Source: Nemertoderma westbladi
Taxonomy: Eukaryota; Animalia; Xenacoelomorpha
Length of the DNA stretch: 64,000 nucleotides
Direction: 5' to 3'
Assembly (NCBI GenBank): GCA_032718475.1
Contig: JAUCBJ010006459.1
Location: 36,552-100,551 of the forward strand
Within the stretch, counting starts at the first letter, position 1. Every line of letters begins with the position of its first letter. Below are positions 1 to 51,472 of this stretch, piece by piece. The notes under the pieces are model-generated. The model was not told the DNA's origin. It saw nothing but the letters and a program-made list of their open reading frames with translations, and searched no databases. The position numbers were made by a program, and so were the translations under genes.

Positions 1-653
1 ACTAACACATCTCTTCTTAGTATCAGGGACCTGGTACCTAAAATTGCCGAATTCTGGGCGTAGTATTAACCTTATGCCTGAATTTGAGTCCTGGAAATAC
101 GCAAGAGGGGAAGGAACCTTATCATTCGTGAGTATTGGACCTACAAGTTACAAAATTAGAATATTCGTAAATGCACACCGTACCCAGTAATTATATATGT
201 GAAGGAGCAAAACTGTTTTGACCGTTCAGAATTAACACGCGCGTTAGAAATTATTTACACCTCGAAATATATAAAATTAACTTTTGTCCGTACTGTGCTT
301 TGCCCGCTAGTTAGACATCTCCAAATCTCTGCCTGTACCTAGCTAGCGTCTCTTTGCCCAACCATATAAATCACACCGCGGCAAGGTATACGAGCCTCTT
401 AGTCCGTCAGTGAGTCAGCCTGATTTTAGGATTCGCTGCGCGGGATTTTGTTTTATCGAAGTTTGTCTGCTCGTAGACTGTTTTCTGCCTCACCGGTTAT
501 AAGAGATCGATACTGCAATATATTCGCTTACTTAGTTTATTGTTTTGGTGAGAAGGTCGGATTTATGATTTCATTTACAAACTTTACAGTAGGATATTGC
601 AGGTATTGTTACCGTCTCTTCGCATAGTAGGAATAGGCGTATCTCTTCAATTA
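1..653 (+). mobile_element. Partial LTR of BEL/Pao family A (3' part), abutting the truncated pol of element B
   Basis: 1-626 is the near-exact reverse complement of ~12781-13410. It is followed by GTAGGAAT, as downstream of element A's 5' LTR, and a second TCTCTTCAATTA end-like motif ending at 653. Confidence 0.9.
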
Positions 654-2844
654 TTGAAAGATGAGTGGGACGTAGAGGTACCAGAGGAAATCAAGAAACA
701 GTGGAGCAAGTGGACAGGAGACTTGGAGAAGATGGGAACATACAACATGCCACGGGTGTATGTTCTCCGACGCGTCGTTGGAAGCGTACGGAGCGGCACT
801 CTACTTAGTACAACGAAAAGGGGCTCATAAGCCAAGGCTAGCCTTTAGCAAAGCAAAGTCAACGCCGCCAGACTCAGCATCTGTTCCCAAGTTAGAATTG
901 ACAGCTGCGAGACTAGGAGTAAGAGCCACAGCCTACCTAGTAGATACTATTCCCAACATAGTGGAGACACACTACTGGATGGACTCCATGGTAGTGCTCG
1001 GTTGGCTACACAACGAAAGGACGAGATATCCGATATTCGTCGCGAATAGAGTGGACGAAATAAGGGCGAGCACAGAACTGGAAAGGTGGCACTACTGCCA
1101 AACAGACGAGAACCCAGCGGACTTGCTGTCGAGGGGCGTGGAACGCCACACTTTCCTGAAGAAGGAAGTATTGTGGCAACATGGGCCACAATTTCTGAGC
1201 GATAGGGAGGCCTGGCCGCCGATAAGGAAGGTGGACCCGGGCTCGGAAGTAGTATCAGAAGGAGAAGAGGGGGATTCAGAGGGAGAAGAGATATACTCCC
1301 AGATGGTGAGGGAGATTAGGGACGTGCAACCAGGAAGGGAACTGTGCGATAACCCAACGGATAAACTCCTCAGCTACAGTTCTAGTTGGTATAAGACCAA
1401 GAAACTAGTAGCGTACTGGAGAGCCTTCGGGAATTTCCTTGCGGGAGTTGGCAAGGACAAGAAGATCAGGACAACCATAGATCTGGAGGGAGCGGCGAAG
1501 GCAGTGATCCGCTATGAACAATGGAAGAACTACGGTGACGAGGTAGAACGCGTCGGTAACCAACAGCACCTCCGACGGGACAGCGAGCTGATTACGCTGT
1601 CGCCACAACTCAATGATGACGGGATTCTAGTAATGAATTCTAGGGTGGGATACAACAATAGCATAGTCGTACCACCGAAACCCATCATCATTCCTACAGG
1701 ATCGCCAATAGTCCACCAGATTATATGGGACTCCCATAAATCGATATTATATGGGGGCACCAACCGAACCCTCACAGAGATAAGGAGGACCTATTGGGTC
1801 AAACAATTAAGGAAGAAGGTTAAAGCGGTAGTGGGGCAGTGCCAGACCTGCCGACGGGCGAAGAAGGAGCGAGCCATACAGGAGATGGCGCCACTACCGG
1901 CGAGTAGGGTAAGACAGCACGACCCGCCATTTACGCATTGCGGTGTGGACATGTTCGGGCCGATAAAGATCAAGGTGATGCGACACACGGAGAAACGCTA
2001 CGGTATTATCTTCGTATGCAACAATACGCGGGCGGTAGGGATAGAACTCGCCCAAGATGCAACCGCATCAGCGTTCATTAACGCCTTAGAAAGGTTTAGG
2101 GACCGCAAAGGTGGGACGATCGCAGTGATATACAGCGACAACGGCACCAACTTTGTGGGTGCAGAGAGTGAGATGGCAGAGGCCCTGGACATCTTGGAGG
2201 GGGAAGAAGTCAAGGCAGCCATGAGGAGACGTCAAGTAAAGTGGGAGAGACGGACGCCGTATGCACCACATACACTAGGATGCGTCGAGAGACTGGTGGG
2301 CAGTTCAAAGCGTCTAATGACGAAGCTAATGAACACCCACATGGTCACTGAGGACGTTTTACGGACAGTACTTGCGAAGTGCGAGGGGATCATTAATAGC
2401 AGACCGCTATATCCGGAGAATGATGACCCTGAGTCGTTAGACGTGCTGACGCCTAGCCATTTCCTGATGGAAAGGCCAGCGACCATCGATATGCGGGGTG
2501 TAGACGCAGATGACATACACTCCCGCCAAAGTTGGAAAGTCGCAAAGGCGATAAGCGCTGAGTATTGGAGGAGATGGGTCGAGGAATACCTACCCACGCT
2601 CCATAAGCGAAGCAAATGGAGGAAACCGAACAGGGAGTTAAGAACAGGAGATCTCGTAATCGTTACGGATGATACTATCATCAACAACCAGTGGCGGTTG
2701 GCGAGAGTTGTAGACACCTACTCCGACGAGGACGGAAGAGTCCGATCGGTAGAAGTGCGGATAGGTGGAAAGATAGGTGCGAAGGACAGAAAAACCTACA
2801 GGAGAGCAGTAGGGAAATGCTGTCTTCTAGAAGGGGCACCTTAG
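654..2844 (+). pseudogene. pol: BEL/Pao pol C-terminal half (peptidase A17/RNase H, integrase zinc finger, rve core, DUF5641-like tail); frameshift near 760
   Basis: WDVEVPEEIKKQW...MPRVY, then FSDAS..AYGA, PKLEL, WMDS, FVANRV, NPADLLSRG, CQTC, GVDMFGP, YSDNGTNF, ERLV, INSRPL, LTPSHFL, DGRVRSV. Confidence 0.95.
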
Positions 2845-2989
2845 AAGTGGAGTTAGCGCTTGGTTTAGTCGTCCAAGTTTTGGACTGAGGGGGGTGGGAT
2901 TGAGGGCGAGACGCCCTTCCCACATATAAAATTTGAAAAATAAAATAAAAATAAAATAATAGTACATGAGTAGGTACGCAGTTAGTAGG

Positions 2990-3570
2990 CAGAAGGTACG
3001 TAGTACCTAATTAGTTAGTAGGTACGTAGTACCTAGAGTTAGTTAGTTAGTCAGAAGGTACGTAGTACCTAAGTTAGTTAGTAGGTACGTAGTACCTAGA
3101 GTTAGTTAGTTAGTTAGAAGGTACGTAGTACCTAATCAGTTAGTAGGTACGTAGTACCTAGAGTTAGTTAGTTAGTCAGAAGGTACGTAGTACCTAATTA
3201 GTTAGTAGGTACGTAGTACCTAGAGTTAGTTAGTTAGTTAGTAGGTACGTAGTACCTAGAGTTAGTTAGAGAGTTAGAGGGTACGTGGTACCGTTAGTTA
3301 GAGTTAGAGGGTACGTAGTACCGTTAGTTAGAGTTAGAGTTAGAGGGTACGTAGTACCGTTAGTTAGAGTTAGAGTTAGAGGGTACGTGGTACCGTTAGT
3401 TAGAGTTAGAGTTAGAGGGTACGTAGTACCGTTAGATAGAGTTAGAGTTAGAGGGTACATAGTACCGTTAGTTAGAGTTAGAGGGTACGTAGTACCGTTA
3501 ATTAGAGAGTCGGAGGGTACGTAGTACCATTAGTTAGAGAAGAGTTAGAGTTAGAGGGTATGTGGTACCA
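2990..3570 (+). repeat. Tandem array of ~18 GGTAC-GTA-GTACC mini-hairpins separated by (GTTA/GAGTTA)n spacers
   Basis: Read directly; units of about 26-38 bp. Confidence 0.9.
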
Positions 3571-4063: not shown

Positions 4064-5747
4064 ATGGCGAGTAAGTTGATCAGAAAGAGAAAGGCGGAGT
4101 CAGGAGGAAAGGAGATACTGGTGGATTTCACCGAGAGACATCCGGAAGAGAAGACGAGAGGATACTACGAGAGGTTGGAAAGGGGTCACGCGGCACGAGC
4201 GTTGCAGGATCACTTCCGGGAGGCGCACGAACAGCGGCTGGTCGGGACCTACGGGACCCCGTCGCTAGACAACGCGATCTTCCAACATTTCCACTACGTA
4301 GTGAAAGGGGACGAGGCGAAGTTCGGGATTCCGAAGTACCCGAGGGAATCACCGAGGAAGGACTGGAAGAGGTTCATAGAGTCCGTCAACAGAGGAGGAT
4401 ATATGATCCTAGATGACGAGGGAACCGTGGAGGACGAAGCGGGTTCGAGACGAGGAACGGCAGGGTCGGCCAGGACCATACTCCTACATTTGGCCGCGCC
4501 AAATGGGGACATCTTCTTATTCGACCTAGGGACGTATGGGAAGAAGGACGGGCCGAAATTAGACCGATTACCGAAAGCGGTACAAGTCTTAGTAAGAGAG
4601 AAGTCGACGACGAAAGTGGGATCGGCGATTCGCGAGGACGCGGAGAGGATCATCGGTCCGGACGCCACCAACCTCCTGGATATGCAGAAAGTCTTTATGG
4701 CTATGACGGCACCGGATGGATTGGGGGTAGTCGGAAACACAGGCCAATGCGGGGCGGTGGCGATGGGCCAATTATTGGGGCTCGTATGCCACAAACCGAT
4801 GGACTGGGGGAAGTTTAGGGAAGAATACGGAGCAGAACTAGCGAACTCGCTAAAGTGGGGAGCGAGACCGGGAAAGCAGGAGGTATATCAATTCCGCAGA
4901 GGAGCGATAAAGGTATATCAGAAGCGATATATCCTACAGGAAGACTGGATCATGATAAGTTTGCTTAACTTATTTATGACCGTGGTTATCGAGAGGGAAC
5001 CAGGGGCATTTCTGTTATCGGGATCACCCCTAAGCTACAGGAGAGCCTTTAAGACGGCCTTTGACGGTCTGGTAGACCACCCGGGGCTGAAGGGTGAGTC
5101 GGTATACTATAACAGCCGGCATCTGGTAGACGGGGAGACAGATACACCGTATCAGAGATGGGAGCAGTTAGAAGCGGATAGACGAGAAGCAAAGGGGACA
5201 CTACGGACGCGAGTGCGACTGGATGAACGACGAGGAGAAGTTCACAAGGTTCGAGGAGTGGGCCGACGTCGGGGCCATGACGCGCCAGCGCATGAAGGCC
5301 CAGGAGTTTAAGTGGGGTTTCTTCCTTATCAATCAGGAGACTCACATGGAAATCATAAAGCGGAGGCTACCGTTTACCTACCAAGAGGTAGCAACGGCGG
5401 CGTCGTACGCTGGAGTGATGAACACGCAAAGGTATCTGGACAGGTGGACGCCAGACAACCGAAGGGAGTTTAGGGATTTCTTGGCGGAGCACGTACCAAA
5501 GGCAATGAAAATGATCCTATGGGACGCCACTAGAGGGAGACAACCGGGCCACTCTGAGGGGCCACCGGCGAAGCGATATCGGGCACTAATAACACCAGCG
5601 CCCAAGGAGCCAACGACCGGGATCAGCAGGGAGGTGGCGGCGAAGGTCCGAAAACAGAAGGCGGATAATGCCAGAGGAACGGTGATAACCAAGAAACGAC
5701 CCAGGGAAGAGGACGCCAGGGGGAACTATCCCCAGAGGAACAGATAG
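4064..5747 (+). CDS. Accessory ORF of element B: DEDDy 3'-5' exonuclease, half CCHC knuckle and conserved C-terminal motif (frameshift/deletion near 5190; ORFs 4064-5311 and 5223-5747)
   Basis: ExoI ILDDEG; LPKAVQVLVREKSTTKVGSAIRED (ExoII region as in WRN/EXD/Mut-7); ExoIII-like RYILQED. The second frame reads QRGHYGRECDW...FEEWAD...WGFF. Confidence 0.8.
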
Positions 5748-6448
5748 GTTCCCGAGTCGAGGGAGAGAGACTGGGACTTGGACGTGGTACGCCTGGAAGG
5801 CGCCGCGTGGGACGTACGAACTATTAAGTACAAATCTAATTAATGCAAATAATCATATAAGTGCAATTTGTATGTACGTACGTAGTAATTAGTAATCTAG
5901 AAATATATACGTTCGGAGTAAGTACTATAGTCATACAACCTTTCTCAATTAGCTACTGGGACTGGGGGATAACTGACTATGGGACTATGGACGAGACACC
6001 AGACAATTCCACACTTCTTGAGTGCGACGGCACAAGAGGGGGGGGGGGGAGATTCTGTCAGAAGGGATGGGACAGTCAGAGTGAGGTTGAGGGACGGAAT
6101 AATAGTGCGGAGTGCGGAGAGAGTGCGGACGCAATTCTAGTGTGGGGGGGGGAGAATAAGAGGCTGAGCGAGGGACGAGGAGGTCCGAGTGTGAGAGAGT
6201 TAGGGTGAGAGTGAAGGTGAGATAGGGCGGAAGTGTTGGGGAAACAAAAGTTGCGTGAAAGGTGAGCGCGATCGGCCCGACATGAGACGCCAGGCACACA
6301 GGGTAGCGTTATCATACCCATAGGGGGCGGCCTGGAAAGCCGGCTCCAAGAGAAAAGAATTCCACCCCACACCCGATACTAGATCGGGATCCAGCGGGAT
6401 TGTAGCGCACTTTTTGGTTGATGCTATCTTCTTACCGGGAAGATAGCA

Positions 6449-6458
6449 TGGGGGGGAG
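6449..6458 (+). promoter_or_regulatory. Polypurine tract of element B
   Basis: G-run plus AG immediately before TGTTAGC; preceded by a perfect 11-bp hairpin (6421-6449). Confidence 0.8.
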
Positions 6459-6990
6459 TGTTAGCTTATTCAATCCCGCTAACACCCCATAAAGTTATAA
6501 GCCGATAAGCAATATTGGGAGCCACGAGATTGGGCAATTAACCAACTCGTGCCATCCCAATAAGAGTGGGAAGGAAGCACACAATAAAGGGTCAGGGGCC
6601 AAACCCCTAACCCAGAGAGTACAGGTGGAGTGAACGGGAACACTCCACGGGGCGCCAACAAGGGTATCAACCAATCAGAGGGGGGCAAGGCATCGATTGA
6701 GTAGAGCAATAAGGCCACCGTGCAATATAACCAGTAACACAATGTCAGTAATTCAGTTATCTCAGTGCAGTGTAGGTTAGTTAGTTTAGATAGGGGAGCA
6801 CGGGACTTTAGTTACCGTATCCCGCCTTCCGTATATTATACTACAGTCATCATATCTATATCTTATACCTATCAATTATTATACACCGAATATCAGAACT
6901 CATTCACTATTTCCGTTTACTCTTTATACACGGCGGGGACGCGTAAACTAAACACCGGATAAATCGGGATCCCTCCTGGATCCCGTCACA
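6459..6990 (+). repeat. 3' LTR of element B (~532 bp)
   Basis: Starts TGT after the PPT and ends ACA; TATA-like AATATAA near 6724 followed by TCAGT Inr-like motifs. No partner LTR in the window, so the right end is inferred. Confidence 0.7.
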
Positions 6991-7043
6991 TTAAATCAAA
7001 GTCTTACAAATTCGAACGTCAACGAACAACTTCGAACGTTACT

Positions 7044-7117
7044 GTCCCACCTTGGTGTAGTGGTTGCGTTGAATTCACATCTCCCATAGTTCATGGGTTC
7101 AAACCCCGCATGGACCA
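7044..7117 (+). mobile_element. tRNA-derived SINE head or tRNA pseudogene
   Basis: A box TGGTGTAGTGG, B box GGTTCAAACC, GTCC...GGAC acceptor-like ends; anticodon arm degenerate. Confidence 0.6.
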
Positions 7118-8458
7118 GGGCAGATTTCGTTCGGTCAGCAATAGGCCTAAGTATACAAAATGCAGTATTATTGCCTAGTAACCAATTCATAGCTACTATA
7201 TGGTTTTCACTTTGAGAAATTTCGCCCTCTAGTGGCAGACTGGGGAACTTCAGACTACTCTGTGACTCCGCAAAAGATATAGCCTATATTGTAATAGATA
7301 CCGAGTGGGGGGGGGGGGGTCAAAATTAAGTAATAATATATCTAAATAAGTCTCAAACATCTTGCCTCATGGCTCGCCCCTCAGAACTCTTAAACAATAT
7401 AGGTTCATAGTTTTTAAGGAAAACTGGTAAACGAGATTTGTTAATAGTTAATAGAAAACAATATATAAAGTAAAAGTAATACAAATAATTAAAGTAAAAG
7501 TAAATACAAATATTTAATTTAAAATTAAATACAAATAAATAAATTAAAATGAAATACAAATAAATAAGTATCAATAAATAAAAGAGCTGAGGTGTCACTT
7601 ATGACACCCTCTTGGGCAGCTTTGTGACAGTTGGACAACACAGACACCATTGCGTGTTAGGGCGCTAATCAGTCTGATTAATTAGGATAATCAATTAAAC
7701 CCTAACTAGGAGTCATAAGACAACTATTAGGATGTTGATTAATTTTCCTCCATGATCATCTTTTAGGTTGTAATCTAAGAGATGAATATAATTTTCAGAA
7801 GCCTCAATATCGATTGTACTTAAAACTTTCCTTGCTTTTTCAGAAAAAAACAATTTTATAATTATCATCACCTCGACGGGAAATAGTATAATCAATAATA
7901 ATATACGGCTCGCCATCTTCTGAAAAAAATTAATGTCTTACTATTGGCATATCCATATCAGAAGACATTATTTAATTTATTTTAATGTAAATCAAACAAA
8001 GTAAAAACTTTTTAATCTAAAACCATTATGCGCAGTTGATTATCGATCGTCGATTCTTTCAAGTATATGATGCGAGTAGCAGATGGTCGTCGTAGAGTGG
8101 AATTGAGTGAATTTCAATAGTCCTCCCTACGGGATGTCCCTTGAAAAGCATAGGGAGGACATCCTTCTACTACTGGGGCGTGTCACTGAATTACGACACT
8201 ATAAGTAGTATAGACTTGGGTGGCTTTGTGACACTTAGACCAAACTGACTGGCGCCAGACTGTCTGGGTGACACCCAATGTCACCCTATGGGTGTCATTT
8301 GGCACCTCCTAATTAGGCTATTTAGACCCTAATTGACAGGTGTCATCCATAAAATAGTACAATTAAACCATAATTTCGTAGGGATAGATGTCGATCTAGT
8401 TTTATTTCAAACTTTTCACCACCCTCGTTGTATTGCATAATAACAATTAACTCGTCTA

Positions 8459-10752: not shown

Positions 10753-10992
10753 AATATTGTTATTTCTGTACCACCACTCGCGGTATTATTAAATTATTTT
10801 GGTTATCTGGCGCAGCAATATTTACATTATTACTATTTATTAAAACATTATTTCCTGCAAGAAATGTTTCATTATTGTTAGGGTTATCTACTACGGTATT
10901 ATTAATATTAACGTTTTCATTGAACGTATTGTCGTGTATGTTCAGTATTGCTTCAGTCGACCAAGGTCAAGATGGATCAAAGATTGGATATA

Positions 10993-11225
10993 TCTTTTTA
11001 CATAACACAGCAGAACACAGTAGAACACAGCAGAACACAGTAGAACACAGCAGAACACAATAGAATACAGGCGGAACATAGGCGAACACAGCTGTAATTA
11101 AAATCTACACCAAAAAATAACACATTTGGGAAAGTAGGCCTACCGGATTTAATCATACAACTGTAAGATGTCAATTACATATTTAAATTTAATGGCGGTT
11201 TTCCATATCCTCCAAAATAAATTAC
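10993..11225 (+). repeat. Left arm of a ~200-bp inverted repeat pair (partner 40787-40977); includes (CAGCAGAACA/CAGTAGAACA)n
   Basis: Reverse complement of 40787-40977 with a few indels. Confidence 0.85.
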
Positions 11226-11447
11226 TTCTCATTATCCGCTATACTAAAGGCTAAAAACAAACTGCGGCATTCTGATTCACATTCAAATGTTTACGTATCA
11301 CCTGATTTGACCCGACTTCAGTCTGAACAGGCATTCCTTCGACGTAAATCAAATCGCGATTCGAACAATGTTGGGCGAAGTTCAGGAGGCGAAACATCAA
11401 ACCCGATTGCCACCCCCACTGAAAGTTCGGACTCGGAAAACCACTAA
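11226..11447 (+). pseudogene. LINE ORF1 C-terminal fragment
   Basis: AILKAKNKLR...NVYVSPDLTRLQ, typical of the CR1/L2 ORF1 tail; TAA at 11445-11447. Confidence 0.75.
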
Positions 11448-11449
11448 AG

Positions 11450-12780: not shown

Positions 12781-14680
12781 TATTGGAAGAGACAGTAACA
12801 ATACCTGCAATATCCTACTGTAAAGTTTGTGAATCAAATCATAAATCCGACCTTCTCACCAAAACAGTAAACTCTAAGTAAGCGAATATATTGCAGTATC
12901 GATCTCTTATAACCGGTGAGGCAGAAAACAGTCTACGAGCAGACAAACTTCGATAAAACAAAATCCCGCGCAGCGAATCCTAAAATCAGGCTGACTCACT
13001 GACGGACTAAGGGGCTCGTATACCTTGCCGCGGTGTGATTTATATGGTTGGGCGAAGAGACGCTAGCTAGGTACAGAGGCAGATATTTGGAGATGTCTAA
13101 CTAGCGGGCAAAGCACAGTACGGACAAAGTTAATTTTATATATTTCGAGGTGTAAATAATTTCTAACGCGCGTGTGTTAATTCTGAACGGTCAAACAGTT
13201 TTGCTCCTTCACATATATAATTACTGGGTACGGTGTGCATTTTACGAATATTCTAATTTTATAACTTGTAGGTCCAATACTCACGAATGATAAGGTTCCT
13301 TCCCCTCTTGCGTATTTCCAGGACTCAAATTCAGGCATAAGGTTAATGCTACGCCCAGAATTCGGCAATTTTAGGTACCAGGTCCCTGATACTAAGAAGA
13401 GATGTGTTAGTTTACTACTGTAGGCGTACAGTTACTAATAGCTATCCTGGCTCCTATCTAGAATTTTAGTCACCCAGGTAGTCCGGGTAACTTCCTATTA
13501 GGGCGTTGGCGGGGACACGGTAGATGTTAGTATATCCCTGATAGCCTCAATTTATTTGCGCCTAGTATGTAAACTGCCCTACCGCCCGAACGGTACAATC
13601 CTAATTCAGGTGAAAACACAATAACCCTCCTAGCCTACAAGTTCTGATGTAATGGACACCGTTGTACGGCAAATAGTCACAGACGCACCTGTACTTAGCA
13701 AGAGTTAAGCGTACAGTTTGCTGCACCCTAACCAATTTGTATGCTTCGTACCGGTGTGCCTACGTCCTATCTGCATACTAGTATCTGCCTGCGCTCTCCC
13801 TCCCCCGTAGGAATGTGAAGGTCTACTGTAGGTTTTCCTGAATCAAGACAGTACAGTCCCTATGATGTAATTTTGGGCTTACAGCGTGTCACTACGTCTA
13901 CCTTTTGATCTTTTGGTCTTACACTTAGGTAGCAAGGATCGAACGCTGTCTAACCTTTCAGGCGATGGGCGAATAACTCTAAAATGGTATTGCGGGTTGT
14001 CTCTCGTCTACATTCCCGTGATGTTCCCGTTCATTGCTGCGGCCCGATCTCTAGCCGGCCATCCTGTCCCTGAGTTTGTTCACCGTAGTGAATCCATAGT
14101 AAAACAGATAGAAAAGCTGAGAGAATATTCTGACTTTATTACAGAAGATACAATTATAATACAATGCAATCTGAGAATAAACTAAGCACGACAGAATATT
14201 GATAAGATAATCTGTGAAGTAGAGATGTAAGTGAAGAAGTGAACTAATGAACGAAATCGCACCTTTATATACTAAATTTGTGCCGCAATCAATCGAGAAA
14301 ATTCTCGATTGTTCTATAGATTCTAACAAGGTTTTAAAGATAGCTATTGGTCCAGCTAATATATAACTTGCACGACATTGGTTACAATCAAATAACTACA
14401 GCCTCATTGGTACAGACAAATGCAATTAATTTGTAGCGGTTAATTTAAATGAGTTGAAATTCTGCACAAAAAATAATTCGCACTTACTAGGATTCGAACT
14501 CGATACCTACTACACATATAATTTCCAACGCTCTACCAACTGAGCTACTGAACCACTTGACCGATAGATGTACAAATGATAGAACCAATACGAATGAGAA
14601 CTCAAAGCAATCTTTACAAAGTTAATTCGAATAAAATAAAATTTTGAAAATCCACGGCATTTAGGGAATATAATTCTATA
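12781..14680 (-). repeat. 3' LTR of element A (1900 bp)
   Basis: Direct repeat of 32759-34660, with about 6 substitutions and 2 single-base indels seen by eye. Confidence 0.97.
14468..14554 (-). ncRNA. tRNA-derived Pol III unit within the 3' LTR
   Basis: GGTTCAGTAGCTCAGTTGGTAGAGC (A box, intact D arm), GAGTTCGAATCC (B box), T6 terminator at 14473-14468. Confidence 0.7.
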
Positions 14681-14899
14681 CCGCTCCATGAAAACAGGAT
14701 ATTATCGTGCATAAAATATACGGTTTTCACCAATAATCAATCAAACTATAGAATACTTAGGGCGTACTTACATATTTACAATTAAATTTCAAACAATACT
14801 TCCTTTCTACGTAATGATTCGATACAAAAATAATTACAAATTCAAACTTTACGTATTTAAGGCTTTACTAAGTAAGTACAATATAAATCTAAATTAAAT

Positions 14900-15535
14900 T
14901 CACCAATATAAATCTATTGCATCTCAATATTGCATAAATTCAAACAATTACAAATACAAATAAATGAAAACAATAAGAAAGGCTCGCGAGTCTTCCATCT
15001 ACTATTGCATCTCAAATATTGCATAAATTCAAGTAATTACAAATACTTTCGTACCTAAATGTAGATTGCATAAGTTTGGAATAATTACAAATATGAGTCT
15101 TTCTGAGCACAAAATTTTCTATCTATAAAACTTTCTAAATACAAAATATAACACTTTACAAATGAAACTATAAGAAAGGCCCACGAGTCTTCCATCTACT
15201 CTTACTTTCTATTTCACTGTAAATACAAATACTGCTTATAAGATATAAATTGCATAATATTCGGAACAATATAAATTGCATAAGTTCAGAATAATATAAA
15301 TTGCATAAGTTTTGAATAATTACAAATATAAAATATAAATTCTTACTAAATATAAGTCGTACTAAATACAGATATAAGCTGCTTTCTAAATTTCATAAAT
15401 TCGGAACAATACAAATTGCATAAGTTCGGAATAAGCACAAATATAAAATATAAGTTTTACTAAATTTTCTAAACATAAAACATATAATTCAAAATAAATC
15501 ACAAAATCATAAGAAAGGCCCACGAGTCTTCCGTC
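14900..15535 (-). repeat. AT-rich degenerate repeats in the 3' UTR of element A (AAATTGCATAAGTTCGGAATAA-like on +) with three copies of the dispersed hairpin motif
   Basis: Read directly. Confidence 0.7.
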
Positions 15536-15552
15536 CACCCTTGCCCTCCCCT

Positions 15553-18500
15553 TTATCGCTTAGTGGATCGAGCCCTGCCGCGTCCTCGAAAACTGCGCAC
15601 AGGTGACTTTGCTCGCGATATGGGACTTGTGGGGCGAGTCACTGGTTTACTTGGGACGTTGAGAGACGGTGCGACTATTTCCTCGCAAATTCGTCTATTT
15701 GGCATCCCAAAACCTCGACCGATTCCTCGTGACCAATCAGTCGTCACTACAGTTGGTAGAACGTCTGGGAACGCGCGAAAGGCGGACGACGCAGACCCAA
15801 GAGTAGCTTGCGCCCCCTGTTGATCAGCTGGTGTATGTCCCGACCCTCCTACTGGTTCTCTTGGAAGTGATACCGTATCCCGAGTAACTCGAATAGTCGG
15901 CTCAACTCCTTTGCGTTCTTCTACATTAATAATTTTCTTTAATTGTTGGCCCACCTTTTGGACCCGTATGATCCTACCCTGCCCGTCCTCCCGAGGGTGA
16001 CGTGCAGACGGCGCAACCGGAGTGGCTGGTATATTCGTCGCCTCTAGGACCTCCTCTTCCTCGAATACGCTCGCTCGTATACGTTTATGGTAAAACGCGG
16101 CTCGGTACGCCCATGCGACGGTTAACCAAGCTCCCTTGTTCCGCTTTTCAGTTCGGAAACGATCGAATTCACCATACGTAATCCGATTAACGACTTTCTG
16201 AAAATTCCACGTGTTTTTGTTATCCGGGTGAATTTGTAACAGATACTCGCGCACCACTCGGAATCCGCTGTCGTGGGGCAAAATATCGACAACCTCGATA
16301 AGTTCGTCATATTGGGGCATAGCGGAGATATATCCTTCCGACATCATCGTCTGGGGATTTACCGCCCAAAATCCGAGATGCGCTCTCATCAGAAACCGTC
16401 TTCTCTGTGCCGATACATGTTCGTCGGCCAAATCTTCCCACTCATCAAATAACTTCCTTACGAGTTTTACAGATTCGTGTTCATAAGGTATGTCCCTTAG
16501 TTGGCATTCAGATGCTCGATGTCCCTTTATATTGCAGTAAGTACATTGAGCCATAAATCTCCAGCAAGTATAAAAGGTATGAGACCCTTGATCCCCACAC
16601 CATCCACAGATTAGCTGAGTCGTAGTAATGTGCTTTCCACTGCACTTTGACATATGATGTCCAGCGACGCCACATTTACTACACATCGTATTGGCAGGGT
16701 ACCACACTCGTTCGTATATAAGATCTCCAATCGGTCGAGCGCTTCCTCCCATACTATAATCGTAATCATCTGGGTCTATGGGTTGGTAGGTTTCTGAAGG
16801 TTGTATACAAACTATAGCATCTGTTGCTTCAAGTTGTCGAATCTCCGTCTGAGATTTCTTCGGGAGGTTCCTTTCTATCTCAAGAAGTTCCTCTAAAGGA
16901 TCGTCGGCGATCGTAGTAGTTACTTCGAATTCATCACCAAGGTGACCGATAGGCGCGCGCGTCTGCCGTGATTCATCCGTAATTTCCACGATACGTTCTC
17001 CTTCATAGGGTAACAATGTAAACATAGATGGTCTTTCGATAAGAGATCCCGCACAGCGAAGATACACGTCTCGAAATATGCTAAATCCTGCTCGAGTAAA
17101 GGCATTACACTGAGCGTCGGAGTTGTAGAAGGGTTCAAGGAATCGTCTAAACACGTCGGTACGAATTCTCCCTTCCATGTAGAACGTATGATCTTCTCCG
17201 AGACAAAGTGGATGTCTTTTGAGAGTGCGAGACACAATGTCGGCGATTAGGCAAACATTCACTGACGACTCTATCGCTAAATAATATTGTAAGACCGCTC
17301 TTGGAGGTGACGTAATAGCCCAATACAATACACGCATCCTCTCCATTTAAGCTGTGATTCAAACTCACTCATATCTGGAGTATCACCTTCTCCATAAGTT
17401 TCAATATACTTGTTTCTCTTATTTTCCTTATAATCCCAATTGAATAACAGGTAGGAAATGTATCCAGTTCCAGTCTTCTGAGTATTATACTCACGAAAAT
17501 ATCCCTGTTCTATAGACCACAGAATAAGAGGTCGAGTGTCGACGTATGGTGTCGGTAGTCGGTCATCGCTGTCCGTCATGCCGGCGAAGTCGCTAATTAA
17601 ATCCTCCCTTACTCCTGATCCAACCTTTACAACAGTTTTATCTAAAATCATGTTTCTTACCATCTTCGGTAGCATTCTAGCGTCAATATTACAAGCTTGG
17701 TCCATCTTCTTTACTATATCGGTGATAAGATGGTGTCGCTTTGTATTCGCTGGAGGTATCGGCATTCGTTTGTCGCTCCTCTGTCTACTGAAAACGTGCA
17801 GGACTCCGTCCGCCGCTCTAATTTGTATAGTCTTAGAAGTCAAACTCTGCTGATGACTGCCGCCCTCGTTATCGTAAAACATATAACCGTTTTCCTGAAA
17901 CGATCTAAACGTCCTAGTCCATTCATCCAACAATTCTTCCGAAGGTTGCCAAATCTTCTCTATATCCTTATCCTCATCGAAACGAATAACCTTACCTCGC
18001 CAATCTGCGGCAATATCTGTATCCGACTCGAAGGTTCCGGTTCCAATCCATAAACGAATCGTCTTGGTTAGATATCCTTTCAGATTACTCAGAGCTATGT
18101 CGGCACCAGCTCTATCCAGTTCCTTGAAATCTTGAATATGAGGTGGAACGTTGTGCACGACCTTTTGAGTAATATGTCTACGTAAATCATATATCTTACT
18201 CATATCGCTGAAAACAACTGCAGGAAGAAACTCCAAGTTTGAAATGATTTCTGGATGATCCACGATGGGTATTTCGTACGTCGTATCCTGTCGGACTGGT
18301 ATACTAATAGGGAAATTGAGTGTCGTACTCAATGGTTTCGTAGTTGAAGTACTATACGGTTGCATTTCTCTTGGCCTCTCCGGGGATGCAATCTGTAATC
18401 TCTGAATAACGTTTTGAGCAAAGTTTATGCTCTCGAAAACTTCCGGTGTCATCTCCTTAGCTGAAGTTTGATCGTGTGACGTCCAATGGCAAGGTAGGCT

Positions 18501-19283
18501 CGCGAGTCTTCCACCCCATTCTTCCATCTCACCTTTCTCGAAAGCCTTGTAGGCTCTGTATAGGCTAAGAGCTTCTTTCTTTTCGCGGGTTGACTGATTC
18601 GCCTCGTCCAGCGTAAGTTCAAATACATCGGGTTCAACAACCTTAGGTGGGTAAATGACAGTTTCTCCCGCCTTTGGTCCGGTCATAGCAAATGAATAAT
18701 ATGGATTCGATAAAGGATACCCTCCTTCCTGGTAGCGTAGTTGTTGATGATTCGAACACCTCGCCAATATCGGTTCGGGATTTTCCTTATTCAAACGCAT
18801 CGGAATCGCATTTCGTTGTTCGCGCATACAAGAACCGCATTGATAATAAAGTTTATAAACCGAAAATGCTTCCTTGGTTTCTCTATCGTCCCCTCGAGTT
18901 CGTCTGTAAAGATGCATTCCATCGAATTCATCGCGTACCGCGGGCATAGGTTCGTGCGCCTTTAGGTATTGCATGGTATGATACAAACGACTAATTTCAG
19001 TATCGGGGTCTTCGCTAATGTCTCCCGTATCACACAAAGCATCGTACGGGTAAAGTTCGTTGAAGGTTTGGCGCAAACTTTCGATTCTTTCGTTTAATGC
19101 GTTTTGCCTTCTCTTTAATACGTTCGAGTCATATTTAGTTCTCGCGAGTTTCGCTGTACTTTCCGATAATTCTTTTATACCGAATATAGTATAATCCTTG
19201 GCTCCAAATCTTTAGAATGGCGCTGCTGCCTCCTCTTGGATATCATATCCCCATCTCGGCTCTCCTTGTATCCCTTTCTCCAT
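15553..19283 (-). CDS. Accessory ORF of element A (~1240 aa reconstructed): DEDDy 3'-5' exonuclease, three CCHC knuckles, conserved motif, basic tail; nonsense codon at 19214-19212 and frameshift near 17345
   Basis: ATG at 19283 is in frame with ORF 19076-17277. FYDNEG; LPKMVRNMILDKTVVKVGSGVREDL; QYYLAIE. CSKCGVAGHHMSKC, CGWCGDQGSHTFYTC and CTYCNIKGHRASEC in ORF 17346-15553. Confidence 0.82.
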
Positions 19284-19948: not shown

Positions 19949-22900
19949 TTATTTACTAGTATTAGGTGGAGATTTGTAGTCTCCAGACTCGTTACGAGTC
20001 TCTTCAAGAAGTACGAGACGTTGAGTCGGTCTGTCTACTGTACGACCGTCAATTGTCCGTACTGTCACAGTCCTTGTCACTCCATCCATAGATGGATGTG
20101 TGGCTAAAATTACACCTGTTATCCAGAAGCGTCTTTTTAGATTCACTTCTGCCAACAGCACGTGATCTCCCGGCTTTAATGCGCGGGTGTTATTATACCA
20201 AGTTGTTCTGGCAGAAATAGAGGGCAAATAATGGTTTTGCCATATTTCCCAGAATTTGTTAGCCAGTAGTTGCGTGATTTTCCACGCTTTTCTACCGTAG
20301 CTGTCGCTTTCTATTGGAATAGAAATCGGCGTCAAAGTGGTCGGTGCCTGCATTAGCAGGTGTGCTGGTGTTAAAGCGAACTGAGATTGTTTGTCATCGG
20401 GTACTAATACTATTGGTCTAGTATTTAGTATTGCCTCGATTTCAACAAACAATGTTGTCAGTTGGTCGTCTGTTAATATGTGGTTTACTGGAATGACCTT
20501 TGCCATGGCTGTCTTTATAGATCTAATCAATCTCTCCCAGACTCCGCCTCTCCAAGGACTATCTGGAGGATTAAACTTCCAAACAATCTTGTGAGGTTGT
20601 AGTTCGTTCGAGATTTGATCATGATCTAATTTCTTAAAGGCTCTAGCAATCTCATTCCGAGCACCAACAAAGTTTGTCCCTTGGTCTGAGTACAAGCATT
20701 TCACTAGTCCGCGTCTAGCGATAAATCGCCGCAGTGCTAGTATAAACGCGTTGGTGGAAAGATCCATCACACGTTCAATGTGAACTGCCCTACTGGACAT
20801 ACATGTGAAAATCAGTCCCCAACGTTTTACTAGTATACGTCCACGTTTCGTATGTATGGGACCAAAGCAATCAATTCCAGTCTCTGTAAAAGGTGGTCTG
20901 AATGCTTGAAGTCGTGCTTGTGGTAGTTCACTCATTTCTTGGGTACCTATTCTAGAATGTACCTTTTTACAAATAATACACGTACGTGTCACTGAACTTA
21001 ACGCTTTACTGGGTCTAATCAATACAAATCTTGTACGTAAGTAGGAAAGACAGTGGTGTCTTCCAGCGTGTTTCAGATGTAGATGTGCGTCCAGTATCAT
21101 TGCACGTTGTAGTTCGTGGTGTTGCGGTATTATTATTGGGTACCTAAAGTTTGTGTTAAAGTCAATGTTTTGAAGCCGAGATTTATGACAAATTAAGCCA
21201 TTATAAATTATCGGACTCCAACTCAGTATTGGTGACGACTTGATTGGTTGACCTTGATTTATAGATGTGAATTCGCGCGCGAAATATCGCAGTTGATAAT
21301 GGCGAATTAATTTAATCTCACATCTGTCAATCTCAGTCAATGTAAGTCGACGCGTAAAGTCGCGTTTGCCTTTAACATATTGTACAAAACGTACAATCCA
21401 CGCTAATTTTCGGCAAGCGCTTGTCCAAGAATCTGTTAAGTTTACAATACGGTCGACATGAGTATTTGTGACGTCATCAGGTAAGTCAATGGAGATTTTG
21501 GAAGGTTTTGAATTACTAGAAGGGCCCACGGGTCCGCCGGTAGGTATTCCCTTGTTGACTGTTGATCCGTCGGGGTCTACAAGTAATTTGTCCTTCTTCG
21601 TCTTCTTACCTTGATCGTCAGTACTTTGTAAGTCGATCGTTAATGGTGGTTTGAACTCTATGGGGTCAGCAGGTTTCGGTAAACTTATTTTCCTGCCGAC
21701 ATTAATCCCAGGTCTCACCATAGGTTGCAAGTTCGGTATGTCTCTTGAGCGCAAAGTAACACCTGTATTTACATTAGCGTAGGTACTACCCACATCTGTA
21801 ATACATGAGGTTTCACCGTGCTTATGGTTGCTCAAGTGTGTCGAATTTGGTAGTTTGTCAATACAAGGCCGCTCCAATAGGGAAACTGCGGCTTTATTGT
21901 TAGTCGATACATTACTAATGTCCGGTAGAACATTTTGTGATGTTTCTGACAAAATGTCTAGTCGACTGTCTAGTAATGTGTCTGGCGATACGTCTGGTAA
22001 CGTATCTGGTTGTTTGTCAATAGAAGGCCGCTCCAATAGGGAAACTGCGGCTTTACTGTTTGTCAGTGTGTTACTAGCGTCTGGTGGAACATTTTGTGAT
22101 ATGTCTGGCAAAATGTCTGGTTGGCTGTCTAGTAACATGTCTGGTTGACCGTCTGGTAACGTGTCTGGTTGACCGTCTGGCGATATGTCTGGTGTAGAAA
22201 GGCTCGCAAGTCTTCCTCTCTTGACCTTTGAAGTTATATCTTTCCATTTTGCCTTCGGTTTCTTCTTGAGTTTTGCCGCCGTTGTCTTTTTCTTTGTCTT
22301 CCCCTTTTTTGGTTTCTTGATTTCGGCGTCCTTTGGGATAGTGTTGGATTTGTTGTCGTATAACGGAGGCCAATCTTGTGTCGATTTCTGCAAGAATTGG
22401 GGTCCGTGTTGCCAAAATTCTTTGTTCTCCGGTTTACAGAATTCCTCAGGCATCATTCCTCGCGACGCAATATCAGCTGGGTTTTGTGGTCCGGGACAAT
22501 GTCGCCAATCCTCTTTTATTGAACGGTCTAGAATTTCCGCGCGACGGTTAGCTACGAATGTCTTGAATTCGAGTGTGTCGTTGTTTATGTAAAATAAAAC
22601 CAACGTCGCGTCAGTCCAATAAAATATCTGTAAACTCGACTGTAGTTCTGTCTGTATGAGGTTCACGATGGTGGTTGGCAGGGTTGCGGCTTGTAGCTCG
22701 GCTCGTGGTGTCGTCATATACTTAGTAGGCATGGTCTTAGCCTTAGAAGTAATGAGCGAAACATCGAACTCGTCTGATTCTACTTGTCTGCGCAAGTACG
22801 CTGCCACACCAAAACCGTTGTCACTGGCGTCAGAAAAACAGTGTAGTTCCAAGTTGTCAGGAAATGTACTTTGTAATGGAAAGTAAACCCTGGGTATGGA

Positions 22901-24481
22901 ATAATCCTCTAGCGAAGATAATTCCGCCTCCCAGGTCTTCCATAAGTCCACTTGGTCTGATGAGATCGGCTCGTCCCATGTTAGTCCATCCTTCCATATA
23001 CTGCGCATATAAATGCGGGCTTGCAGTATCACTGGACTGATGAATCCTAACGGATCGAACAATCGGCTCAACTTTGACAAGCATGATCTCTTTGTCAGTG
23101 TGTTCTCTTGACTGTCCAGTCTCACTTTCACTCGGAAGTTGTCTGTGTTTGGGTCCCAAAAGAGCCCCAACACCTTAGTCGTCGGTAGTGGTTCGAACTC
23201 TAGGTCTATGTCACCACCTCCACGCTCAGTCGTCCCGAATGAGTCTACTAATTCGGCACTGTTTGAGGCGAATTTGGTGAGGTTAAAACCTCCGCCCGCT
23301 AAGCAGTCCCGTAATTGATGTGCTACTGTTGTAGCACGTTCTACTGTGTCGCAACTCTGTAAACCGTCATCTACATAAAAGTCACGCTCCACAATCCTAA
23401 TTATCTCTGGGTCATACAGGTGTTTCTGATCCCTAGCGGCCTGCTTTAGGGCGTACATCGTGCAATTTGGGCTGTCTCTGGCACCGAAAACGCGAACTTG
23501 CATTTGGTAAGTCGCCGGTGGTAAACTTAAGTCTCCTTCCGGGTACCAGAGGAACCGCAAACTGTCTCTGTCTCGCTCTAACGCTCTCACTTGGTGAAAC
23601 ATCGCTTCAACGTCACAAGTAAAAGCTACTTGACGCTGACGGAAGCGCATAATCACCCCCATAAGATAATTATTCATGTTTGGTCCATCCATCAACTCAC
23701 TATTGAGGGACATTCCCTCAAACAGAGCCGCGCAGTCGTTGACTACGCGTACTTTATCTGGTTTGTCGGGATGTCTCACATAGTGATGTGGCAAGTAATA
23801 GGTTTGGTCAGTCACTATCTCCGGGTTAGTCATTCGGATAGCGTATCCCTTAGTCAAATACGTCTCCATCTGAGTGTTGTACTGCAGATGGGCCTTCTCG
23901 TCCTTTAATAGACGTTGCCGTATTGAGTGTAGACGTCTTAAAGCCAGTGGATAGTTGTTTATAAGTTTAGGACTTTGGCTACGCCATAACATCCCTACCT
24001 CATAATGTCCGTCTTTCGTCTGGTGGATAGTATCTTCCATGATCTTCAGAGATTGTTTCTCCTGTTCCGACATACAAGGTTCGTAGCTACCAGGTTCAGG
24101 TGTATCTTGTTCTAACCACCTGATAGTCTTCTCCGTTAATTCCTTGTCTAGCACAGCTTGTTCCAACTGATGATTTCTCAACGCGTCATCATCGATCTCG
24201 ACGGGCACTGTTGAGGTTATTGGGGTAGGTAGACTCGCAAGCCTATCATCTGTCGTCGATGGAATCTCTAGCTGACTCGTCTTCTCCCCAAGTTCTAAAC
24301 TCACCTGGTGAATTAGCTGCTCCTTGTGACTTATCATACTAGTTACACGTCTGTTATGTTTTGTCGACTGTAGTGTAGTATGGTTCACGTCGTGTGAGAA
24401 GGAATGAATTGAATTTGTAGTTAATAAACTACATGTACTCTGTACATCGTCTTCCTCGTCACTTACGTCTAGTGTGCGCAC
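19949..24481 (-). CDS. pol: BEL/Pao pol: RT, peptidase A17/RNase H, low-complexity insert, integrase
   Basis: YLPHH, KVRVVNDC, DVEAMFHQV, FGARDSP, FYVDDG, KVLGLFW, FDPLG, FSDAS, PRAEL, NPADIASRG, GIDCFGP, SDQGTNF, WERLI, LTPAHLL. Confidence 0.97.
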   Translation of the reverse strand: MRTLDVSDEEDDVQSTCSLLTTNSIHSFSHDVNHTTLQSTKHNRRVTSMISHKEQLIHQVSLELGEKTSQLEIPSTTDDRLASLPTPITSTVPVEIDDDALRNHQLEQAVLDKELTEKTIRWLEQDTPEPGSYEPCMSEQEKQSLKIMEDTIHQTKDGHYEVGMLWRSQSPKLINNYPLALRRLHSIRQRLLKDEKAHLQYNTQMETYLTKGYAIRMTNPEIVTDQTYYLPHHYVRHPDKPDKVRVVNDCAALFEGMSLNSELMDGPNMNNYLMGVIMRFRQRQVAFTCDVEAMFHQVRALERDRDSLRFLWYPEGDLSLPPATYQMQVRVFGARDSPNCTMYALKQAARDQKHLYDPEIIRIVERDFYVDDGLQSCDTVERATTVAHQLRDCLAGGGFNLTKFASNSAELVDSFGTTERGGGDIDLEFEPLPTTKVLGLFWDPNTDNFRVKVRLDSQENTLTKRSCLSKLSRLFDPLGFISPVILQARIYMRSIWKDGLTWDEPISSDQVDLWKTWEAELSSLEDYSIPRVYFPLQSTFPDNLELHCFSDASDNGFGVAAYLRRQVESDEFDVSLITSKAKTMPTKYMTTPRAELQAATLPTTIVNLIQTELQSSLQIFYWTDATLVLFYINNDTLEFKTFVANRRAEILDRSIKEDWRHCPGPQNPADIASRGMMPEEFCKPENKEFWQHGPQFLQKSTQDWPPLYDNKSNTIPKDAEIKKPKKGKTKKKTTAAKLKKKPKAKWKDITSKVKRGRLASLSTPDISPDGQPDTLPDGQPDMLLDSQPDILPDISQNVPPDASNTLTNSKAAVSLLERPSIDKQPDTLPDVSPDTLLDSRLDILSETSQNVLPDISNVSTNNKAAVSLLERPCIDKLPNSTHLSNHKHGETSCITDVGSTYANVNTGVTLRSRDIPNLQPMVRPGINVGRKISLPKPADPIEFKPPLTIDLQSTDDQGKKTKKDKLLVDPDGSTVNKGIPTGGPVGPSSNSKPSKISIDLPDDVTNTHVDRIVNLTDSWTSACRKLAWIVRFVQYVKGKRDFTRRLTLTEIDRCEIKLIRHYQLRYFAREFTSINQGQPIKSSPILSWSPIIYNGLICHKSRLQNIDFNTNFRYPIIIPQHHELQRAMILDAHLHLKHAGRHHCLSYLRTRFVLIRPSKALSSVTRTCIICKKVHSRIGTQEMSELPQARLQAFRPPFTETGIDCFGPIHTKRGRILVKRWGLIFTCMSSRAVHIERVMDLSTNAFILALRRFIARRGLVKCLYSDQGTNFVGARNEIARAFKKLDHDQISNELQPHKIVWKFNPPDSPWRGGVWERLIRSIKTAMAKVIPVNHILTDDQLTTLFVEIEAILNTRPIVLVPDDKQSQFALTPAHLLMQAPTTLTPISIPIESDSYGRKAWKITQLLANKFWEIWQNHYLPSISARTTWYNNTRALKPGDHVLLAEVNLKRRFWITGVILATHPSMDGVTRTVTVRTIDGRTVDRPTQRLVLLEETRNESGDYKSPPNTSK

Positions 24482-24493
24482 AGGCGCTCGAGT

Positions 24494-32747: not shown

Positions 32748-32758
32748 CACATTCCTAC
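32748..32758 (-). promoter_or_regulatory. Primer-binding position of element A: GTAGGAATGTG (non-tRNA type)
   Basis: Flush with the 5' LTR end; lacks TGG; complementary to an 11-mer inside the LTR. Confidence 0.55.
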
Positions 32759-34660
32759 TATTGGAAGAGACAGTAACAATACCTGCAATATCCTACTGTA
32801 AAGTTTGTGAATCAAATCATAAATCCGACCTTCTCACCAAAACAGTAAACTCTAAGTAAGCGAATATATTGCAGTATCGATCTCTTATAACCGGTGAGGC
32901 AGAAAACAGTCTACGAGCAGACAAACTTCGATAAAACAAAATCCCGCGCAGCGAATCCTAAAATCAGGCTGACTCACTGACGGACTAAGGGGCTCGTATA
33001 CCTTGCCGCGGTGTGATTTATATGGTTGGGCGAAGAGACGCTAGCTAGGTACAGAGGCAGATATTTGGAGATGTCTAACTAGCGGGCAAAGCATAGTACG
33101 GACAAAGTTAATTTTATATATTTCGAGGTGTAAATAATTTCTAACGCGCGTGTGTTAATTCTGAACGGTCAAACAGTTTTGCTCCTTCACATATATAATT
33201 ACTGGGTACGGTGTGCATTTTACGAATATTCTAATTTTATAACTTGTAGGTCCAATACTCACGAATGATAAGGTTCCTTCCCCTCTTGCGTATTTCCAGG
33301 ACTCAAATTCAGGCATAAGGTTAATGCTACGCCCAGAATTCGGCAATTTTAGGTACCAGGTCCCTGATACTAAGAAGAGATGTGTTAGTTTACTACTGTA
33401 GGCGTACAGTTACTAATAGCTATCCTGGCTCCTATCTAGAATTTTAGTCACCCAGGTAGTCCGGGTAACTTCCTATTAGGGCGTTGGCGGGGACACGGTA
33501 GATGTTAGTATATCCCTGATAGCCTCAATTTATTTGCGCCTAGTACGTAAACTGCCCTACCGCCCGAACGGTACAATCCTAATTCAGGTGAAAACACAGT
33601 AACCCTCCTAGCCTACAAGTTCTGATGTAATGGACACCGTTGTACGGCAAATAGTCACAGACGCACCTGTACTTAGCAAGAGTTAAGCGTACAGTTTGCT
33701 GCACCCTAACCAATTTGTATGCCTTCGTACCGGTGTGCCTACGTCCTATCTGCGTACTAGTATCTGCCTGCGCTCTCCCTCCCCCGTAGGAATGTGAAGG
33801 TCTACTGTGGGTTTTCCTGAATCAAGACAGTACAGTCCCTATGATGTAATTTTGGGCTTACAGCGTGTCACTACGTCTACCTTTTGATCTTTTGGTCTTA
33901 CACTTAGGTAGCAAGGATCGAACGCTGTCTAACCTTTCAGGCGATGGGCGAATAACTCTAAAATGGTATTGCGGGTTGTCTCTCGTCTACATTCCCGTGA
34001 TGTTCCCGTTCATTGCTGCGGCCCGATCTCTAGCCGGCCATCCTGTCCCTGAGTTTGTTCACCGTAGTGAATCCATAGTAAAACAGATAGAAAAGCTGAG
34101 AGAATATTCTGACTTTATTACAGAAGATACAATTATAATACAATGCAATCTGAGAATAAACTAAGCACGACAGAATATTGATAAGATAATCTGTGAAGTA
34201 GAGATGTAAGTGAAGATGTGTAACTAATGAACGAAATCGCACCTTTATATACTAAATTTGTGCCGCAATCAATCGAGAAAATTCTCGATTGTTCTATAGA
34301 TTCTAACAAGGTTTTAAAGATAGCTATTGGTCCAGCTAATATATAACTTGCACGACATTGGTTACAATCAAATAACTACAGCCTCATTGGTACAGACAAA
34401 TGCAATTAATTTGTAGCGGTTAATTTAAATGAGTTGAAATTCTGCACAAAAAATAATTCGCACTTACTAGGATTCGAACTCGATACCTACTACACATATA
34501 ATTTCCAACGCTCTACCAACTGAGCTACTGAACCACTTGACCGATAGATGTACAAATGATAGAACCAATACGAATGAGAACTCAAAGCAATCTTTACAAA
34601 GTTAATTCGAATAAAATAAAATTTTGAAAATCCACGGCATTTAGGGAATATAATTCTATA
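32759..34660 (-). repeat. 5' LTR of element A (1902 bp)
   Basis: Direct repeat of 12781-14680; TATA-like TATATAAA near 34250 and ATATAAA near 33020 on the minus strand. Confidence 0.97.
34448..34534 (-). ncRNA. tRNA-derived Pol III unit within the 5' LTR
   Basis: Same sequence as 14468-14554. Confidence 0.7.
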
Positions 34661-34665
34661 GAGCC

Positions 34666-49512: not shown

Positions 49513-49519
49513 AATTAAT

Positions 49520-51330: not shown

Positions 51331-51472
51331 AGACTCTTGACACTAATAAACAACACCAATACCAATACCAACGCTACTCCCATTCAAAATTTATATTTGT
51401 CACAGTGGGGATAAGTTACCAGGGGCGATACTACTACTACTAGGATCGGCATGCTGCATTGCAGCTGCATTT

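Follow-up and report, generated by a model that had tools for sequence, protein, structure and literature searches.

Two retrotransposons of the BEL/Pao type, referred to hereafter as elements A and B, lie on opposite strands of the stretch of Nemertoderma westbladi DNA analysed here (the window, 64,000 nucleotides), and each carries a third open reading frame downstream of pol (ORF3). Are these two frames descendants of one old gene, and what would such a gene do for its carriers? The initial annotation had proposed that B, a highly divergent element, contains the same exonuclease cassette as A at the same place, and that the cassette is an old, selected component of a BEL/Pao lineage, or is exchanged between lineages, and not a chance capture of a host gene. 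The features of both elements are collected in Table 1.

Table 1. Position and content of the features of elements A and B in the window.
Feature	Position	Strand	Basis
A-family LTR copy, 97% identical to the LTR of A, in opposite orientation to A, adjoining B pol	1..628	+	
B pol fragment (RNase H region, integrase, C-terminal domain)	676..2844	+	Pfam
Tandem-repeat spacer separating B pol from ORF3	2986..3531	+	repeat families D2 and D3
B ORF3, first frame (ORF3a): basic N-terminus, then DEDDy-like exonuclease domain (~4346-5011)	4064..5311	+	
B ORF3, second frame (ORF3b): second half of a CCHC knuckle (GH-x4-C, 5196), C-terminal domain, basic tail	5172..5747	+	
Candidate 3' LTR of B (TGTGA...TCACA), putative boundaries, single copy in the window	6190..6990	+	sequence
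A 3' LTR; target-site duplication GAGCC at 12776-12780	12781..14680	-	
A ORF3, second frame (ORF3b): ExoIII Y-x3-E (17283, 17271), three CCHC knuckles (16683-16504), C-terminal domain, basic tail	15553..17346	-	
A ORF3, first frame (ORF3a): ExoI D/E (17873, 17867), ExoII D (17603)	17277..19283	-	
A pol	19949..24493	-	Pfam Peptidase_A17 3.5e-42, DUF5641 1.9e-20
A 5' LTR; target-site duplication GAGCC at 34661-34665	32759..34660	-	

The pol fragment of B contains, in this order, Peptidase_A17 (Pao; E=2.6e-15), Integrase_H2C2 (4.4e-11), rve (8.7e-5) and DUF5641 (1.8e-24), as assessed with Pfam. The integrase follows RNase H, the arrangement of Pao-type elements. Neither the reverse transcriptase nor the gag of B lies in the window; the 5' half of the element, its primer site included, is outside it, and B is truncated at its junction with the A-family LTR copy. 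At 1-636, this LTR leads into the initial 8 nt of the A primer site and from there directly into B pol. The junction is of the 5'-LTR type and perhaps arose from a deletion or a template switch. The candidate LTR of B gave no blastn match to the LTR of A. The initial annotation had assigned B a different LTR; since the window has one candidate B LTR, what stands of this is that the 3' end of B has no A-type LTR.

Within its LTR pair, A carries gag, pol and a third ORF that is split over two frames, all on the minus strand. The two LTRs, 1.9 kb each, are 99.6% identical and, together with the 5-bp target duplication, identify A as an element with paired LTRs. Their ends read TATA...AATA, not TG...CA, and there is no TGG-type primer site after the 5' LTR. 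The first 11 nt after the 5' LTR of A (32748-32758) are exactly complementary to LTR positions 865-875 (33786-33796, minus strand; chance ~5e-4), which suggests that A may prime itself. A tRNA-like stretch was noticed by eye in the A LTR near 14480-14555; ARAGORN called no tRNA genes, this stretch included.

Several further rearrangements were observed in and around A. A pol carries a long insert of low complexity, placed between its RNase H and its integrase; within the insert lies a 159-nt tandem duplication (21842-22159) that keeps the frame. The gag of A is split by an insertion of ~3.6 kb (~26350-30030, minus strand) with a 74-nt duplication at its edge and two long ORFs (27198-28937 and 28880-29932), neither of which has a Pfam match at E≤1. 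A terminal inverted repeat of at least 10 nt was not found at the guessed ends of this insertion, which is possibly a DNA transposon. ORFs of non-LTR retrotransposons, endonuclease/RT-like by eye, were seen at 11423-12823, 34628-36052, 36373-39894 and 49451-52825, and A sits within one such ORF, between 12780 and 34661.

The ten motifs on which the proposed relationship had been based, five from each element, are all present in the window. Those of B occur in a single plus-strand frame that starts from the ATG at 4064 (GYMILDDEG at 4397, LHLAAPNGDIFLF at 4484, LPKAV...IRED at 4568, SLKW at 4847 and QKRYILQE at 4919). On the minus strand, those of A at 17888, 17828, 17672 and 17354 lie in the ORF 17277-19211, and LQYYLAIE (17292) lies in the next frame. 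BLASTP aligned the first frames of the two third ORFs at E=2e-7, with 56 of 220 residues identical (25%), and their Smith-Waterman score of 92 was reached in none of 1000 shuffles (z=10.8). The second frames matched weakly (E=0.004; 3/1000 shuffles). No relation was detectable between the N-terminal parts (906/1000 shuffles); A ORF3 is about twice as long as B ORF3. In both elements ORF3 is on the sense strand, downstream of the integrase stop, after a gap of ~1.2 kb in B and ~0.7 kb in A, as expected from the proposal of a common location. The high divergence of the two elements was likewise borne out: they gave no blastn match at E<0.01, their pol proteins (RNase H, integrase) are 29-36% identical, and their base composition differs, with a pol GC3 of 0.58 in B versus 0.42 in A. 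We conclude that A and B carry homologous third genes after pol.

A profile built from the A and B domains was run against 1.84 billion representatives. The sole match at E≤0.001 was a protein of 648 aa (P0001; E=3.8e-4), a singleton from a 9.4-kb ENA contig. In a single frame, P0001 joins a DEDDy-like exonuclease domain to three CCHC knuckles and, at the C-terminus, an F-x-x-W..G..TR..WGFF..LPFTY block, and it matches B ORF3a (3e-10), A ORF3a (3e-11), B ORF3b (9e-7) and, over the knuckles, A ORF3b (8e-5). P0001 was also the sole match of the alignment among 7988 candidates in a word-indexed search; in such searches, B ORF3a matched none of the 7986 candidates (228-727 aa) at E≤0.01, and residues 495-640 of P0001 matched only P0001 itself among 14 candidates. 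Locus searches of viral, metagenome and GTDB contigs revealed no ORF3 relative, the integrase query gave one match, at 21%, and P0001 found nothing better than E 6-10 among plasmids and phages. With NCBIfam and PHROGs no match fell below E=0.01, the best being a DnaQ-type epsilon at 0.017 for A.

The likeness between these proteins extends beyond generic DEDD motifs. Smith-Waterman scores were 81 for B-A, 102 for B-P0001 and 125 for A-P0001, as compared with best scores against 10 bacterial DEDDy domains of 57 for B (E. coli RNase D, z=7.2), 37 for A and 65 for P0001. In a search without filters, scaled to the database size of the search against solved exonucleases, A and B match each other at E ~0.01. 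A, B and P0001 define a protein family that was missed by Pfam, with an altered active site and an unnamed domain. Some details of the initial annotation had to be revised. The pairing of the strand LHLAAPNGDIFLF of B with IQIRAADGVLHVF of A (LHLAAPNG/IQIRAADG) is out of register in both BLAST and MAFFT alignments. The pairing of QKRYILQE with LQYYLAIE did not exceed chance when taken alone (252/1000 shuffles, B ORF3a versus A ORF3b), and it holds by position and by comparison with P0001. A cassette is indeed present at 4064..5747, in two frames and not in a single open one, with a break near 5194.

The fold of the exonuclease-like domain was assessed by several means. When the alignment of A, B and P0001 was compared by hhalign with 10 RNase D/PolA domains of bacteria, the probability was 93.4% (E=2.5e-7) over 92 columns, from ExoI to ExoII. 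Among the best 30 matches in the ESM Atlas, 24 for B and 25 for A belonged to the PF01612 set, at 0.91-0.93; the three top matches of B were unnamed clusters, and its PF01612 match had 153 shared features, fewer than the 170 typical of same-family matches. The best PDB profile match was EXD2 (E=0.28), and RNase D was found at 1.8. With a model of the P0001 domain (pLDDT 44.4), Foldseek placed EXD2 first (E=5.5e-3), with many DEDD nucleases below it, and a wide structural search with the same model gave no Z≥5. The single-sequence fold of B had a pLDDT of 31.5. In direct comparisons with Pfam PF01612, neither A nor B matched at E≤1, and P0001 matched at E=0.2 (11.9 bits, below the cut-off of 23.6). 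Because hhalign, Atlas, PDB profile and Foldseek point the same way when taken together, a DEDDy fold is very probable, short of proof.

In all three proteins, the D-x-E of ExoI aligns with the DTE of RNase D (D117/E119 in B, at 4412 and 4418; 17873/17867 in A; DVE in P0001), and the ExoII Asp, in IRED, VRED and IKAD, aligns with D85 of RNase D (D192 in B, at 4637). At ExoIII, Y-x3-E was found in 3/3 proteins (Y289-x3-E293 in B, at 4928 and 4940), versus Y-x3-D in 10/10 references; this register was set by eye because hhalign stopped short of ExoIII. In B, an Asp is present one residue after the ExoIII Glu. The ExoI D and E, the ExoII D and the ExoIII Y are kept in 3/3 proteins at 26-28% identity. 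The domain is DEDDy-like, but it falls outside strict Y-x3-D membership. On balance, an active nuclease is slightly more likely than not.

Three CCHC knuckles are present in A (Pfam zf-CCHC 0.0033 in ORF3b) and in P0001, and their best PDB matches were HIV NC (1e-4) and Air2 (6e-4). Because ORF3b of B starts halfway through the last knuckle, the window copy of B has likely lost most of the knuckle array at its frame break. Beyond the knuckle, B and P0001 have an unnamed C-terminal domain in common (0/1000 shuffles), conserved in B ORF3b as FEEW..G..TR..WGFF..LPFTY at 5250-5381. Over this region, the B-A match was weak (3/1000 shuffles) and A-P0001 gave no significant match (643/1000 shuffles); downstream knuckle residues are common to A, B and P0001. 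The A protein has ~440 extra residues at its N-terminus (17889-19211, minus strand), in which a C-x2-C...C-x2-H pattern was seen by eye. This region had no match in B and no convincing Pfam family.

Both window copies of ORF3 are broken. In addition to the break of B, A ORF3a has an in-frame ATG at 19283 that is followed by an in-frame stop (19212-19214), leaving 17277-19211 open, and its frame is broken near 17320. Other copies differ at these places, and near 5194 loose ends of contigs from other copies were found in 3/3 DNA runs. The breaks look like copy-level lesions. Programmed frameshifting was considered for the split ORFs and rejected, since A and B are not broken at corresponding places, P0001 has one frame, and other copies differ at both breaks. 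The contigs came from three DNA runs on two samples, one of which is possibly the source; each run had 9,830-22,413 contigs lying on B and 5,091-12,546 lying on A. For both elements, 30/30 bins were covered in 3/3 DNA runs and the depth over ORF3 was of the same order as over pol; contig depth is not copy number, and among the contigs listed none bridges pol to ORF3. In a run guessed as RNA, low-depth contigs lay over ORF3 of A and B, which is not evidence of expression.

Contigs that are 16-19% diverged, with 0-5 gaps, cover the exonuclease of A; examples are 981 nt with 183 differences and 4 gaps, and 553 nt with 90 differences and 0 gaps. Third codon positions account for 13/22 of the ORF3 differences among those listed (p=0.012), for 4/6 in B alone (p=0.10), and for 14/19 and 13/19 in pol, the base of the test being the 40 differences listed per element, beside 625 and 416 others. 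Between A and B, the exonuclease core is 26% identical over 169 pairs and the C-terminal part 26% over 90 pairs, as compared with 34% for the integrase. The GC3 of ORF3 follows that of its own pol: 0.61/0.71 with a pol of 0.58 in B, and 0.41/0.42 with a pol of 0.42 in A. As ORF3 is no more alike than the integrase and its composition follows each pol, a recent exchange of ORF3 between A and B appears unlikely. We infer a long residence of ORF3 in each element, and an old shared cassette is, in our assessment, quite probable. As regards recent capture, the view of an old, selected cassette that is not a chance acquisition from the host is supported by the mutual scores of A, B and P0001, the shared Y-x3-E, a divergence at least as great as that of pol, the codon composition and the third-position bias.

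We propose, with a probability of roughly 0.6, that ORF3 of A and B is an old accessory gene whose product, a 3'-5' exonuclease of the DEDDy fold that also has CCHC knuckles and an unnamed C-terminal domain, would bind and trim RNA, most likely to counter silencing. The protein would be made separately, from a subgenomic or spliced RNA. Its knuckles would hold single-stranded RNA for the exonuclease, RNA being the presumed substrate by analogy to trypanosome RNase D, and the protein would trim or hold the RNA 3' end. Host small-RNA silencing would thus be blunted, host small silencing RNAs being the guessed target. An RNA-binding 3' trimmer is suggested because the layout of an exonuclease with tandem CCHC knuckles matches that of trypanosome RNase D. 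Anti-silencing as the main role is put forward tentatively, at somewhat less than even odds; if ORF3 acts on small RNAs, it would be a candidate transposon-encoded counter-defence. A more far-reaching version is doubtful: that a deep BEL/Pao lineage has kept its own family of D-E-D-E RNA exonucleases, with a triple CCHC knuckle array and a novel C-terminal domain, since before the integrases diverged to 34%, and that this suppressor trims or sequesters host piRNAs or siRNAs, helping to explain the abundance of both families. An env role for ORF3 was ruled out because there is no transmembrane segment by hydropathy: neither a signal peptide nor a transmembrane anchor was seen, the highest Kyte-Doolittle 19-residue mean being 1.44 or less in all ORF3 parts.

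The cassette might have reached A and B by other routes. If their ancestors had each taken it up separately, in an ancient horizontal exchange from a pool common to unrelated retroelements, the great differences between A and B in ORF3 length, N-terminus and spacer would be explained. There is a precedent in Juno, Vesta and Terminons, where an exonuclease ORF is described as gained independently at least twice and shared by retroelements of different classes (PMC5408684). The identical position and orientation in A and B weigh against such entries, and the similarity of ORF3, no greater than that of pol, and its composition, equilibrated in each element, weigh against recent ones, so that we regard this route as rather unlikely. 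A pairwise identity of just 25-26% and the score of B against E. coli RNase D (z=7.2) would accord with exonuclease genes captured from the host twice and independently, or with generic motifs that are alike by chance; moreover, the domains compared by score were 10 bacterial ones. However, the A+B profile singled out P0001 from all representatives searched, Y-x3-E and downstream knuckle residues are common to all three proteins, the C-terminal domain of B and P0001 is beyond the reach of shuffling, and neither A nor B alone matches a solved exonuclease at E≤10. Captures or chance are very improbable.

The activity of the protein might also differ from the one we propose. As in Exd1 or Maelstrom, the DEDD fold and knuckles could form a catalytically weak or dead scaffold, one that does not cut and instead binds RNA or a silencing protein of the host. 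The last Asp, replaced by Glu in 3/3 proteins, is described as a metal A ligand in Trypanosoma brucei RNase D (TbRND; Asp230, PMC7797062) and EXD2 (Asp246, PMC6648332), and Maelstrom and EXD1 are described as inactive DEDD derivatives (PMC5408684). The replacement is nevertheless one carboxylate for another, the remaining catalytic residues are kept, and a DEDE site is reported for RNase HIII, though this belongs to a different family (PMC9719913); we consider a scaffold unlikely. Nor does much likelihood attach to an enzyme of the replication cycle, which would trim 3' ends of the element's own RNA, primer or cDNA in the particle instead of host RNAs. The resemblance of the knuckles to nucleocapsid fingers (HIV NC, Air2) is consistent with it, as is the 3'-end processing proposed for rotifer ORF3 (PMC5408684), and primer maturation in A may be unusual, because a TGG-type site is absent and 11 nt pair with its own LTR. 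Yet the gene descriptions in the ICTV profile and the BEL/Pao survey name no such gene (PMC8742986, PMC3118150), so that most BEL/Pao elements apparently replicate without ORF3, and one minority contig joins across the whole of A ORF3 (15446 to 19643; one contig, one run). The proposed RNA exonuclease, most likely directed against silencing, remains our preferred reading.

A and B resemble Belpaoviridae in the Pao-type domains of pol and in the position of a third ORF between pol and the 3' LTR (a candidate LTR in B), and A also in its gag-pol order and its LTR pair with a 5-bp target duplication. The third gene named in the descriptions of the family is only env-like (PMC8742986, PMC3118150), unlike ORF3 of A and B; it is the only one listed in the ICTV profile (PMC8742986). 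Whereas LTRs of 0.2-1.2 kb are described, those of A measure 1.9 kb, and A further differs in its TA...TA ends and in having no tRNA-type primer site. The term 'exonuclease' has 0 occurrences in the main texts of a BEL/Pao survey (PMC3118150) and a mollusc survey (PMC6238403), and the literature searched, to which neither Repbase nor Dfam nor the bulk of subscription papers belonged, yielded no paper that describes a BEL/Pao element with an exonuclease ORF. Set beside descriptions with gag, pol and sometimes env only (PMC8742986, PMC3118150), ORF3 would be an old, selected, non-env accessory gene in two high-copy families.

Among cellular enzymes, EXD2, WRN and RNase D (PF01612) have in common with ORF3 the ExoI D-x-E, an LP...KVG...ED with the ExoII Asp, and the ExoIII Tyr. 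Unlike them, ORF3 is below the Pfam cut-off, has Glu in place of the last Asp, has inserts between the motifs, is fused to knuckles and is carried by a mobile element. The fingers of TbRND hold RNA while its 3' end is trimmed, and its combination of a DEDD exonuclease followed by tandem CCHC fingers, as in A and P0001, is called 'very unusual' (PMC7797062). In contrast with A and B, TbRND is described as a mitochondrial enzyme of the cell, in which the fingers number four and the DEDD site is complete (PMC7797062). TbRND appeared weakly among our matches, with profile matches confined to the fingers, and the likeness is one of layout.

The LTR retrotransposons Juno and Vesta of bdelloid rotifers are Ty3/gypsy-like. 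Together with Athena/Terminons, they carry a DEDDy-type ORF3 with a DEED motif, gained at least two times (Rodriguez et al., 2017, PMC5408684), and the same account is given in PMC6431247 and PMC6338049. As in A and B, the rotifer ORF3 is a non-env third ORF after pol, with a DEDDy-like domain, an altered acidic motif and no transmembrane segment, and it occurs in more than one element lineage (PMC5408684). Its motif is DEED, with the register taken from the text, versus D-E-D-E in A and B (ExoII Asp, ExoIII Glu), and its description is without a triple CCHC array or C-terminal domain, a Cys-His-Cys motif being given for two families only (PMC5408684). In the same description Juno and Vesta are not presented as BEL/Pao (PMC5408684), and the likeness to ORF3 of A and B is by description, not by sequence; rotifer proteins were absent from the matches of the ORF3 protein searches. 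With A and B, retrotransposon exonucleases, published for rotifers only, would extend to another virus family.
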